Origin: Octopus sinensis
Lineage: Eukaryota
Assembly: GCF_006345805.1 (NCBI RefSeq)
Contig: NC_042998.1
Location: 12,648,001-12,712,000 of the forward strand
Direction: 5' to 3'
Length of the DNA stretch: 64,000 nucleotides
Shown here: piece by piece, positions 813-29,939 of the stretch
Layout: every line of letters begins with the position of its first letter
Numbering within the stretch: the stretch's first letter is position 1
Position numbers and translations under genes: made by a program
The notes under the pieces: generated by a model
Databases searched by the model: none
The model's input: the letters and a program-made list of their open reading frames with translations, nothing else
Told to the model about the DNA's origin: nothing

Positions 813-2101
813 CGAGGGGCGTTCTATAAGTAATGCCCCTGACCCACTTCCCACAGCAGTAGAGCAACGAAACTTGGCACAGTTATTAGTCTTTTTCTAC
901 ATAGGAATCACCCAGAGTTACGCATTTCTCCCATTGCTTGATGCAGCTCTGGAGATCATTTTTGTAGAAGACTTCAGCTTGGTCCTCCAACCACGACGTG
1001 ACTTCAGAAATCAAGGCTGCATCATCTGGGAAAGGCTTTCCTTTCCAAAACAAATTCATGACTGGGAAGAGGTGAAAATCAGAGGGTGCAAGGTCAGGAA
1101 AGTAGGAGGATGGGGGAGGAGTTCATAGCCATACGCCTGTGCTTCTGATCTGGCGACAAGCGAGTTGTGGACCGGAGCGTTGTCCTGCAGAAGGAGGATG
1201 CCTTTGCTGATCTTGCCCCGCCTCTTGATTTTGATAACTTCTCTTAATTTCCTCAGAAGTAAAGCATAATAGGCTCCTGCAATTGTGGTACACTTTGCCA
1301 GGAAATCTGTCATCACTACTCCGTCCTGTTCCCAGAAGACTGTGAGCATGACCTTGCCAGCAGAGGGCTGCACCCTTGCCTTCTTTGGAGGGGTTGAGTC
1401 ACTGTGCTTCCACTGCATTGACTGGCTTTGGTCTCTGGATCATCGTGATGGACCCAGGTTTCATCCTGTGTAATCAGTCTTTTGAAAACCTTTGACTCAT
1501 CTTCTTGGCACATCTCCAAATTCACCCTCGAGCACTCGACGCGTTCTTGCTTCTGGAAAGGCGTGAGCAACCTGGGAATCCCTCTGGCAGACACCCTTTG
1601 CATATGCAAATGGTCATGAATGATGGTTTCCACAGATCCGGTACTAAACTTGACCTCATGGGCTATTTGGCGAATAATTATGCGTCGATTTTCCAAAATG
1701 GCAGCCTCAACTTGACAGACAGATGCCTCATCAATGGCAGAAGGGGCGACCAGATCTGGGAGCTGTTTCCACAGAGCTCCGACCATGTTTGAATTCACGA
1801 TGCCAGCGTTTTACAAGGTCATATGATGGGGCATCATCACCATAAGTTACTTTCATTTCATCAAAAGTCTCCCGTGGTGTGCGTCCTTTCAAATACAAAA
1901 ACCGGATCACTGCTCGGCACTCAATAGGCTCCATTTCACACTTGACTCAGTTCAAACGCCTGTAAATAAGAAACCCCAATTAATTCAGAGCTGTAATTTG
2001 CCACTTACTCTATAGAGATATACATGATTGCACATGCAAACTTTCGGCTAGATCAAACAACGGCAAGTGGGTCAGAGACATTACTTATTGAACGTCCCTC
2101 G
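813..2101 (-). mobile_element. Full-length Tc1/mariner DNA transposon (irritans-like TIR start), inactive
   Basis: 37-bp TIRs: CGAGGGGCGTTCTATAAGTAATGCCCCTGACCCACTT at 813-849 and its inverse ending at 2101, with 4 mismatches. TA on both sides, 1289 bp long, inserted in a (TA)n tract. Confidence 0.97.
886..1934 (-). pseudogene. Mariner DD34D transposase, frameshifted
   Basis: Overlapping ORF pieces MEPIECRAVIRFL..PRSGRP / SARGIPRLL..ITQDETWVHH / KVMLTVFW..LLQDNAPVH..LLPHPP / C-terminus [15 protein letters not shown] (TAA at 886-888). At least 3 frameshifts. Confidence 0.95.
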
Positions 2102-13235: not shown

Positions 13236-13787
13236 TTGGGTTGTCCGGAAAGTTCGTGCCGATTTATAGTAGCTTACCTTTCGACTTGTTTTAGAAAATG
13301 GTTGAGTCCATAAAATAGAATTTGACTACACCTCCATTTAGAGCACAGTTTATGGAAGAAGGTTTATGTTCCTATAACCTGTGTTAATTTTGTAACCCTT
13401 TAAAATGGAAGATAAGAAAGTTTATTTGCGGCACTTGATGCTTTGAGAACCAAACAAAAATTGCTACAGCTCGGCTGGGATGTGTTACCACACCCTCCAT
13501 ATTCACCCGATATTGCTCCTTCGGATTTCCACTTATTCAGGTCTCTGCACAATAGTCTTAATGGTACAAATTTCAATTTCTTGGATGACATAAAAAGATA
13601 CCTTGATGAAATCTTTGCCATGAAACCACCTCAATTCTGGGAAGAGGGTATTTTCAAGTTAAAGGAAAATGGAGACGCATTGTGCAACAAACTGGTTTAT
13701 ATTTGGCTGATTAAAAATGTAATGGCATGTATTTATTGACCTTTTTCTTTCCTTTAAAAATCGGCACAAACTTTCCGGACAACCCAA
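13236..13787 (+). mobile_element. Internally deleted mariner (mellifera/cecropia-like TIR)
   Basis: 30-bp TIRs TTGGGTTGTCCGGAAAGTTCGTGCCGATTT with 1 mismatch and TA flanks. N-terminus MEDKKVYLRHLML (ATG at 13405) is joined near 13444 to C-terminal [26 protein letters not shown]. Confidence 0.95.
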
Positions 13788-25257: not shown

Positions 25258-25652
25258 CTTTTCTTCTCTAGACTCAAGGCCCGAAATCTTTTGGGAGAGC
25301 CCAGTCGATTAGATCGACTCCACTATCCATCTGGTACTTAATTTATAGACCCCGAAAGGATGAAAAGCAAAGTCGACCTCGGCGGAATTAGAACTCAGAA
25401 ACAGGCGAAATACCAATTTCTATTTCTTTACTACCCACAAGGGGCTAAACACAGAGGGGAGAAACAAGGACTGATAAACGGATTAAGTCGATTATATCGA
25501 CCCCAGTGCGTAACTGGTACTTATTTAATCGACCCCGAAAGAATGAAAAGCAAAGTCGACCTCAGCGGAATTTGAACTCAGAACGTAGAAAGAGACGAAA
25601 TAACGCTTAGCGTTTCGCCCTGCATGCTAATGGTTCTGTCAACTCACTGCTT
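25258..25652 (-). mobile_element. SINE group B dimer with two different tails
   Basis: Head, core and tail 1, then a restart at GGTATTTCG, core and tail 2. Confidence 0.85.
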
Positions 25653-26188
25653 TCACAAACATATATATATTATTACTTTTATGAGCAGTCGTTCGTGAAA
25701 ATAAATCCATAATGTCTTTATGTCGCAATTAGTTTTCTATACAAAATAGTTTAAGTTGCAATCCTCACTTAACGCTTCTTCTTTTATGTATTTCAGAGAT
25801 TTCCATCTCCTCGAGGTATTGTTTTCCCTACGACTAGTGAGCACCATCTACACTTGAATTACTGGATGACTGTTGACTCTCATGAGCTCCTCCACCCTTT
25901 CACAGGTCTTGTTTTTCATTCATCTGGATGACGTCAAGAAACGTCACTACGCTTGCCGGTTTATTCGCCGACGATCCGACCTTATAACAGATTGTACTGT
26001 GTTACATGCTACCAGAAGCGCATAGACGTCTTCATCTATGTATGTATGCGTGTGCGCGTCGGTGGTTACCTGTGTGTGCGTGTGCGTGAGTACAATAACG
26101 CCTGTTTATTTCGATATCAAATTTTCCACGAGGTAAACAATACAAGAAATTCATAAATGCTGGTGTAAGATTAATGCATATTTTACTT

Positions 26189-27829: not shown

Positions 27830-28068
27830 AGAAATACCTATTTCTTTACTACCCACAAGGAGTTAAAAACAGAGAGAACAAACAAGGACTGACAAACGGA
27901 TTAAGTCGATTATATCGACCCCAGTGCGTAACTGGTACTTATTTAATCGACCCCGAAAGGATGAAAGGCAAAGTCGACCTTGGCGGAATTTGAACTCTGA
28001 ACGTAACGGGAGACGAAATACGGCTACGCATTTCGCCCGGCGTGCTAACGTTTCTGCCAGCTCGCCGC
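27830..28068 (-). mobile_element. SINE group B
   Basis: Full head, core and tail 1, followed by the GGTATTTC restart. Confidence 0.9.
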
Positions 28069-28606
28069 GTTATTTAAAGGAAGAGTACCATAAGATGAAT
28101 TGCAGCATGTGCAAACAAAACAATCCTTCGGGTGCAACCACATCTCTGACTAGGTTTAGGTAGGTACTGGGTGTTAGCTACTCGCTAATTCTGAATATAA
28201 ACACAGTCAAGATTGAGTGAACATCTATGTCTATCTGGCAATATACCAACATTTCGATGTGAAAATATGAAAGAATTGGTGTTAAATTATGCCGAATACA
28301 GTATAGGACAACGACCCGGCTACGATGATTTCGAATATGCCCAATAAACTGAAAAAGAAACCAATATAAACCTTAGACATAATAATCAATGATTAGAAAA
28401 ATACACATGGCCACTGATAGACTATACAATCCACTTTTGACGTAAATACTATCCTAAATGCTGTTGTAAAAACGTCATAACACAGCGAACTTGAATTCGA
28501 AATATTTGAAATGTGGTGAATGTAAGGGTTTGCGGTACCAATATCACTTTCAGCATTTAAATTATGATATCAAGAAAAAAGAATCATTAACAAAATATAC
28601 AATTAT

Positions 28607-29025: not shown

Positions 29026-29268
29026 AATCCTACCGGGACATAAAACAGTACAAAATCTTCAAAAATTTGCTCTAGTAGGTAAAGCCCATATCCAACGCAT
29101 GACATTTTCGTTTCAATAGCACAGGCCAATAAGAACAATCTTCACACACAAACGCAATCAGCACCCAGTAAAATAATTATGACTACCCAATAATATAACC
29201 CAATTGATATCACACACACAGTACACACTAGGGAGCAAACACTAATACAACAGAAATAGTAACGAACT

Positions 29269-29592
29269 AAACAATTGCAGCGTGGAAGGTGTTTGTAAGC
29301 CATTTAAGAAAGACACAAAAGCCGTTCGATTCACTTCAACATTTAAGTTTAATTTTGTCAAAATATTTTCGTTGCTATAAGATCGCGACCTGTTCACTGA
29401 CAAAACAGTGAACAGGTCACGGTCTTAAAGCGACGAAAATATTTTGACAAATTAAACTTAAATGTTGTAGTGAATCGAACGGCTTTTGTGTGTTTCTTAA
29501 ATGGCTTACAAACACCTTCCACGCTGCAATTGTTTTCGTTTCAGCACATGATCGCAGATCAAATCACTTGCTATGCAAGTACATCTCCGTAA
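29269..29592. mobile_element. PLE-type insertion with inverted pseudo-LTR arms and TSD
   Basis: Inverted arms of about 130 bp (29269-29399 and 29406-29535), a right-side extension, a 16-bp direct repeat AGTAACGAACTAAACA (29258-73 and 29593-608), and a hammerhead-like motif in the arms. Confidence 0.8.
29354..29404 (-). ncRNA. Putative minimal type I hammerhead ribozyme with G3:C8 core
   Basis: TTTGTCA-GTGAACA-G-GTCGC-GATCTTATA-GCAAC-GAAA-ATAT-TT-TGACAAA: 7-bp helix I and palindromic helix III (AATATT). Confidence 0.6.
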
Positions 29593-29939
29593 AGTAACGA
29601 ACTAAACACCATACAAAGATAATCCACTGCATTAAACTACGAAGAATCCTCTAAACATTTTGAGCACCCAAGAAAAGATTAAATATTTTGAGCAGATCCC
29701 TCGGAAACCAACAATCTACGAGGTTCAAAATATTATGCTGACATCACCCGCCCACATTCTCAGGAAGTTTCTCTCCACCTAATAAATACCTGCTTTTGGT
29801 CTCTGGTTGAGACCCAGTCGGAAGATGAAATGAAATGCAAATAAATTAGAAAATATCAATAAGTAAAATAATAATAACAGTAATAATGATGATGGTGGTC
29901 GTCGTTGTCGTGGTGGTGGAGGTGATGTGATGATTGAAA

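Follow-up and report, generated by a model that had tools for sequence, protein, structure and literature searches.

Can a natural hammerhead ribozyme carry G3:C8 in place of the C3:G8 base pair of its catalytic core? This question is raised by a short insertion in a 64,000-nucleotide stretch of the Octopus sinensis genome (NC_042998.1, positions 12,648,001 to 12,712,000; hereafter the window), in which a sequence-only reading had described a hammerhead motif with the core GTGAACA inside an insert of the Penelope-like element (PLE) type. Comparison with related sequences indicates that the variant is real and shared across a family, and that both the ribozyme and the element carrying it are of known kinds; the motif resembles the minimal hammerheads of PLEs. 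The reading we favour, at a probability of about 0.6, is that the hammerhead of this PLE family (termed family A) has been naturally swapped to G3:C8 and likely still self-cleaves slowly, either as a dimer or with the assistance of protein.

The hammerhead motif

Every piece that had been assigned to the minus strand lies at the position proposed for it (Table 1), and the core recurs in the opposite arm of the insertion. The proposed helix layout is largely sound, in that helices I, II and III could all be located, although it omitted a G between A9 and helix II. Measured against the hammerhead core C3 U4 G5 A6 N7 G8 A9, the motif departs in G3 and C8, the remaining core letters being canonical, and positions 3 and 8 retain a Watson-Crick pair in the form of G3:C8. 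G12 A13 A14, A15.1:U16.1, H17 and G10.1:C11.1 are all present, and helices I and II flank the core with 7 bp and 5 bp, respectively, in the family. The minus-strand copy contains one C-A mismatch in helix II, where the family has GCGAC, while the plus-strand copy has one helix II mismatch and retains only 2 nt of the 5' strand of helix I.

The full descriptor matches once in the window and not at all in 200 dinucleotide shuffles (12.8 Mb, both strands), whereas the heptamer GTGANCA by itself occurs at chance level (28 observed versus 32.6 expected). Rfam gave no hammerhead match at the window locus. Four other loci (L198, L108, L242 and L141), two of them with canonical cores, drew 159 Rfam matches, and the 150 that were listed include no hammerhead family. 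The Rfam result is therefore uninformative about the swap, because canonical-core relatives were missed as well.

Family A in the genome

A search of 2.72 Gb of genome sequence with the 18-nt pattern TGTCA-N-TGA-N-N-A-N-GTCGC returned 7,004 matches, compared with 6 for a reversed control; 6,233 of the 7,004 have G3:C8. A further 305 matches combine G3 with a purine at position 8, and 85 differ at both positions 3 and 8. In a sample of 97 copies chosen by an open reading frame (ORF)-start pattern, and hence blind to the core, 65 have an intact G3:C8 core, 4 have G3-G8, none has CTGANGA, 20 have no readable core and 8 show other changes. The family consensus, set beforehand as a test of the swap, thus reads GTGAACA rather than CTGANGA, and its helices are conserved. 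The palindromic helix III noted at the outset, AATATT in the window, is likewise conserved (AAUAUU) among family copies, and the extra G between positions 9 and 10.1 is found in 62 of the 65 sampled copies. Among 60 loci taken in order along contig 1, the motif is fully intact in 44 of 67 cases, and 39 loci contain both orientations.

The common differences between subfamilies of family A are located in loop II and the flanks (positions -5 to +12 being fixed by the sampling pattern), and the only one in a helix changes U-A to U-G. G5, A6, A9, G12-A14, A15.1:U16.1, H17 and the palindrome are all retained across the subfamilies. Family A is also present in public contigs under four organism labels, with no core variants among the best-supported rows listed.

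We found no canonical-core subfamily within family A among the 11 of 12 C3:G8 matches that were fetched: 10 belong to other families and one (L246) is apparently unrelated. An excess of G3-G8 copies (L259-L288), for which a relic intermediate or a mutational hotspot may account, is observed in old and young subfamilies alike. Descent of these copies from one ancestral clade is unsupported, as the 19 changes among 93 labelled rows are scattered over a tree in which 72 of 92 inner branches are unresolved (2 of 97 rows were dropped for gaps). Beyond this genome, a screen of 54 metagenome and 80 of more than 120 viral matches yielded 4 of 134 that passed a loose structure filter; these are singletons in GC-rich DNA and are probably due to chance. 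L359, L389 and L438 are single metagenome or viral-contig stretches that loosely fit the G3:C8 descriptor, also probably by chance.

Related families and the compensatory swap

Four further PLE families, B, D, E and F, have the motif at the same position and share a common ORF start with family A. The core of family B is CTGATGA, and its reverse transcriptase-endonuclease (RT-EN) is 54% identical to that of family A over 806 aa. Families E and F, which were found through the 85 matches differing at both positions, have the cores YTGAWGA (CTGAWGA or TTGAWGA) and CTGAAGA, respectively, together with the same TGTCA/GTCGC helices as family A, and some of their motifs differ from family A solely at positions 3 and 8 over the 18 nt. 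Family D has the core TTGAAAA (19 motifs printed from 30 loci). Position 17 is U in families A and E and mostly C in families B and F.

The swap in family A is, on this comparison, compensatory, because its relatives carry C3:G8, U3:A8 and U3-G8 at the same two positions, some of them with identical helices I and II. The covariation expected under this proposal was recovered: of 23 rows chosen by hand from about five related families, all but one (22) have a pair at 3:8 (CG 9, GC 6, UA 4, UG 3), and the structure as a whole is 91.7% paired, as against 27-53% when slid.

For family D (L006:2428 (-), L137-L166) there are ~1,500 candidates; its minimal hammerhead has U3:A8 and a 4-nt palindrome, AATT, and occurs mostly in inverted pairs. 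Further motifs with a palindromic helix III and C3:G8 or U3:A8 were encountered at L043:2901 (+), L100:8721 and 8139 (-), L040:1227 (+), L104:1269 (-), L105:3159 (+) and L216:1068 (+), and probably represent other PLE families.

The host element

The assignment of the insert to the PLEs is borne out by its homology to L198, a complete element that has the motif in each of its flanking repeats (at 2565 and 6926, 4,361 nt apart), the first lying 92 nt before the start codon (2657) of an RT-EN frame with one frameshift. L197 contains an open frame of 1,042 aa with RT and GIY-YIG motifs that were read by eye (DKSG, SMDVVSLYPSI, YVDD, CxxxCxxC, VYQIKC...YIGET), so that family A appears to have the single ORF, with RT and C-terminal GIY-YIG, of the endonuclease-containing (EN+) PLEs. 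Pfam gave no significant match for this frame, and for the homologs P0001 and P0096 it gave RVT_1 and GIY-YIG matches that are weak and below cut-off; a PDB sequence search with the family A ORF returned 0 matches. At many loci the motif lies ~0.9-1.3 kb after the end of an ORF bearing GIY-YIG motifs, and the closest named proteins to the family A RT are labelled Octopus vulgaris. The ORF directly after the motif in L027 was rejected as the family ORF: it is that of another element, with a separate repeat in between.

Flanking repeats, inverted truncated copies and a tail between two 3' ends were all found in family A, as in the Neptune and Nematis EN+ PLEs (PMC8557442), with which it also shares the domain order and, in many copies, insertion beside (TA)n. 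The linker before the endonuclease, CQSNCAVC (CxxxCxxC), fits the CX2-5CxxC of these elements and is short, as in the Nematis rows. In contrast, the RT motif GGAIGVGIAGDVANLFM fits neither the Neptune nor the Nematis supplement rows when compared by eye, and the tail measures ~57 nt rather than 30-40. One PLE copy, L032:527-1300 (-), contains about seven in-frame tandem 99-bp repeats in the endonuclease region.

5' ends of the copies

The 5' ends of family A copies bear on the RNA from which they were made. In 64 of 97 copies the start lies 43-64 nt upstream of where the cut is predicted, most often at -60, whereas only 3 of 97 start within 4 nt of the cut, and the cut site was rejected as the 5' end of the copies. 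This scarcity suggests that the insertions derive from uncut RNA. Of the 46 copies ending at -60, 31 have a G at -61, compared with 0 of the 38 that extend further (Fisher p 7e-12), which have C or T there. Copying of a cap usually leaves behind an untemplated G, and the extra G thus points to a capped template. The template was probably a capped RNA that starts 15 nt before helix I and was mostly uncut when copied. In the Penelope element of Drosophila virilis an internal promoter is also located in the repeat (PMC2377424). No report of an untemplated cap-type G in PLEs was found among the 25 of 291 literature matches that were listed.

Insertion locus in the window

The window insertion is a short inverted PLE insertion with two arms, which form a 267-bp inverted repeat (29269-29535; repeat pair I1/I18) with the hammerhead motif at its centre. 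The inverted arm ends at the first 3' end of the family (...GCAATTGT; 37 of 228 alignment ends) and the direct arm at the second (...CATCTCCGTAA; 46 of 228), a sharp common 3' end. These resemble the two reverse-transcription starts that define the tail of a PLE (PMC11167929). The ATG at the start of the ORF in the direct arm corresponds to the start of longer frames in L198 (608 aa) and L200 (597 aa). An empty target site that would confirm the duplication was sought in the genome and none was found.

RNA across the locus is predicted to fold, from either strand, as a single hairpin of ~-220 kcal/mol. The window copy, judged by this prediction, is a decayed product whose RNA would fold as one long hairpin, and the claim of a swapped core applies to the family and not to this damaged, hairpin-trapped copy.

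Table 1. Features of the PLE insertion and its hammerhead motifs (positions in the window)
Feature	Position	Strand	Basis or remark
Minimal type I hammerhead motif, G3:C8 core	29354..29404	-	sequence, family comparison, alignment and pair counts
Helix I, 5' strand TTTGTCA	29404-29398	-	
Core GTGAACA = G3 U4 G5 A6 A7 C8 A9	29397-29391	-	
Extra G at 9.1	29390	-	between A9 and helix II
Helix II GTCGC / GCAAC	29389-29385 / 29375-29371	-	
GAA	29370-29368	-	
Palindromic helix III AATATT	29367-29362	-	
U17	29361	-	
Helix I, 3' strand TGACAAA	29360-29354	-	
Predicted scissile bond, U17 (29361) / nucleotide 1.1 (29360)	29360..29361	-	inferred from hammerhead numbering
Second, incomplete hammerhead copy	29408..29451	+	core 29408-29414
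Left 16-bp direct repeat, probable target-site duplication	29258..29273	+	exact match to 29593; last bases overlap element arm
Right 16-bp direct repeat	29593..29608	+	exact match to 29258
Inverted PLE arm, hammerhead to ORF start	29269..29404	-	92-93% identity to L198; inverted repeat
Direct PLE arm: 5'-clipped hammerhead, 5' leader, ORF start, tail	29406..29595	+	93.6% over 187 bp versus L198 5' repeat and ORF start
First 31 codons of PLE ORF (MAYKHLPRC...)	29501..29593	+	stop at codon 17 in window copy

Immediately to the right of the insertion, 29680-29900 belongs to a different dispersed repeat, for which there are 271 candidates at 80-87% identity, and copies of a SINE-like repeat lie at 25303-25653 and 27833-28071. 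Broken frames at 1056-1810 (-) and 13416-13739 (-) resemble a mariner-type transposase. Elsewhere, a 522-aa open frame at L031:250-1818 (-) matches PF08398, a phospholipase A2-like domain of parvoviral type (E 7e-13), and is probably an endogenous densovirus-like capsid gene.

Comparison with known hammerheads

The family A motif most closely resembles the minimal type I hammerheads that have been described in metazoan PLEs (Cervera and de la Pena 2014, PMC4209133), and above all those of the D. virilis/Aedes type, in which helix III is short and palindromic. Both occur in the two flanking repeats and have a U-rich 5' side, G10.1:C11.1, a palindromic helix III, frequent U17, inverted motif pairs and the extra nucleotide separating position 9 from 10.1 that is a described mark of PLE minimal hammerheads, although this is G in family A and H in the published consensus. 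The published cores are CUGANGA, UUGANAA and one UUGAAGA, in contrast to GUGAACA in family A, and neither G3 nor C8 appears in the 56 rows of Fig. S3 of that paper. Natural U3:A8 variants (Perreault et al. 2011, PMC3088659), including those of the Schistosoma mansoni Cercyon PLEs (PMC4209133), represent a compensatory 3:8 change as in family D. G3:C8, unlike U3:A8, takes two transversions from C3:G8, with no path through a wobble pair only.

The same two bases have been introduced into the Anolis PAc PLE hammerhead, where the engineered C3G/G8C mutant is partially active (PMC11167929; reviewed in PMC8495972); in family A, by contrast, G3:C8 is the fixed state, with over 6,000 genomic matches. 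We found no natural G3:C8 hammerhead in the literature searched, coverage of which is incomplete, so that novelty is provisional. Such a report is absent from the available portions of PMC3088659 and PMC4209133 (which describe U3:A8 only), bioRxiv 10.64898/2026.07.22.740005, PMC6155905 and PMC11014351.

Does the family A motif cleave?

Hammerheads rely on the 3:8 pair to hold their general acid in position. In published work the rate falls 10^5-fold with G8C alone and recovers in part when C3G is added (PMC8495972); the engineered double change in the Anolis PLE hammerhead gives a partial, protein-dependent rescue (PMC11167929), and G3-C8 is stated, as data not shown, to be less active with C17 than with G17 (PMC3884650). 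Cleavage by minimal PLE hammerheads is weak and confined to dimers (PMC4209133; PMC6765202). Most pairs of helices I and II in family A are predicted to form in their natural context with P above 0.9.

Under the reading that we favour, a capped A lying 15 nt upstream of helix I would be the first transcribed nucleotide. Helix III, which could be formed only between two molecules, would arise when two RNAs join through their AAUAUU palindromes, and the use of U17 instead of C17 may avoid a G3:C17 mispair. With transcripts beginning at that A, cleavage at the U17 site would take off the cap along with the first 58-60 nt, and slow, assisted cleavage would in this way decap the RNA of the element. 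On uncut RNA, reverse transcription would begin at two sites a short way into the ORF and continue as far as the cap, yielding 150-250-bp copies by the thousand, often in the form of inverted pairs such as the window insertion.

Several observations weigh against slow cleavage. Only three of the sampled copies begin near the predicted cut. A predicted G3-U17 wobble would extend helix I (P ~0.67), the AAUAUU duplex by itself contributes just -0.2 kcal/mol, and the best co-fold has a lower energy (-31.3) than the double hammerhead (-27.2). The 23 rows of the covariation analysis are not 23 independent events and, since they stand for five families, represent only a handful of 3:8 events. By extrapolation from the first 100 of 305, family A contains ~220 G3-G8 copies as against ~85 with G3-A8, an excess of ~2.6 times even though background rates of C-to-G and C-to-A change are alike. 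In family B, a subfamily with A9C (CTGATGC) accounts for 25 of ~44 motifs tallied and includes copies with long ORFs (L204-L207, L210, L211, L216; L109-L128), the others being canonical CTGATGA. Its spread indicates that core changes can become common without compensation, and catalysis may thus be dispensable. Lastly, the Anolis element does not require cleavage in order to insert in vitro (PMC11167929).

Some of these points lend weight to a serious competing explanation, less probable than the favoured reading but far from unlikely: that the motif is a true hammerhead homolog that no longer cuts, its fold being kept as a 5' promoter or protein-binding element and its 3:8 pair being structural or restored under weak selection. 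Derivation of the copies from uncut RNA, the A9C spread, the G3-G8 excess, the G3-U17 trap and insertion in vitro without need of cleavage would all be expected of it. On the other hand, the core is just two positions off the consensus and these restore its one Watson-Crick pair, the residues and the palindrome listed above are all kept across subfamilies, and cut RNA may simply be degraded and hence be missing among the insertions.

It is improbable that what matters at the locus is instead the inverted repeat, as a putative source of double-stranded or small RNA. The long predicted hairpin, the frequency of loci with both orientations and sub-threshold matches to miRNA families fit this view, whereas inverted truncated copies are an ordinary by-product of PLEs (PMC8557442) and the conserved core would be left unexplained. 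It is highly unlikely that the motif resembles a hammerhead by coincidence and is merely the hairpin in the middle of an inverted repeat: the lack of an Rfam match and the poor fold of the window copy alone (z -1.15) would fit, but Rfam lists no hammerhead for canonical-core relatives either, the shuffles gave no descriptor match, both repeats of a complete PLE carry the motif, and homologous canonical motifs in the same slot of related families refute it.

A bolder extension of the favoured reading is that family A provides the first case of a naturally occurring, active hammerhead with G3:C8, that G3-G8 was an intermediate on the way to it and still survives in old copies, and that the ribozyme decaps the element's own RNA when two transcripts meet, acting as a dose-dependent brake on transposition; we regard this as doubtful and offer it tentatively.

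Significance

The cap signature would place the ribozyme at the extreme 5' end of the RNA that is copied in transposition, and so has a bearing on what PLE hammerheads do. In the literature examined, G3:C8 is otherwise represented only by the engineered, partly active mutant. The G3:C8 family, together with its C3:G8, U3:A8 and U3-G8 relatives, constitutes a natural series for asking what catalysis a PLE needs. The hammerhead search of PMC8557442 used cuganga strings, and CUGANGA-based descriptors of this kind (PMC8557442, PMC3088659) would leave more than 6,000 motifs of this genome undetected. If the bolder extension is true, searches based on the canonical core undercount PLE hammerheads, and some PLEs considered "hammerhead-free" may carry swapped cores.
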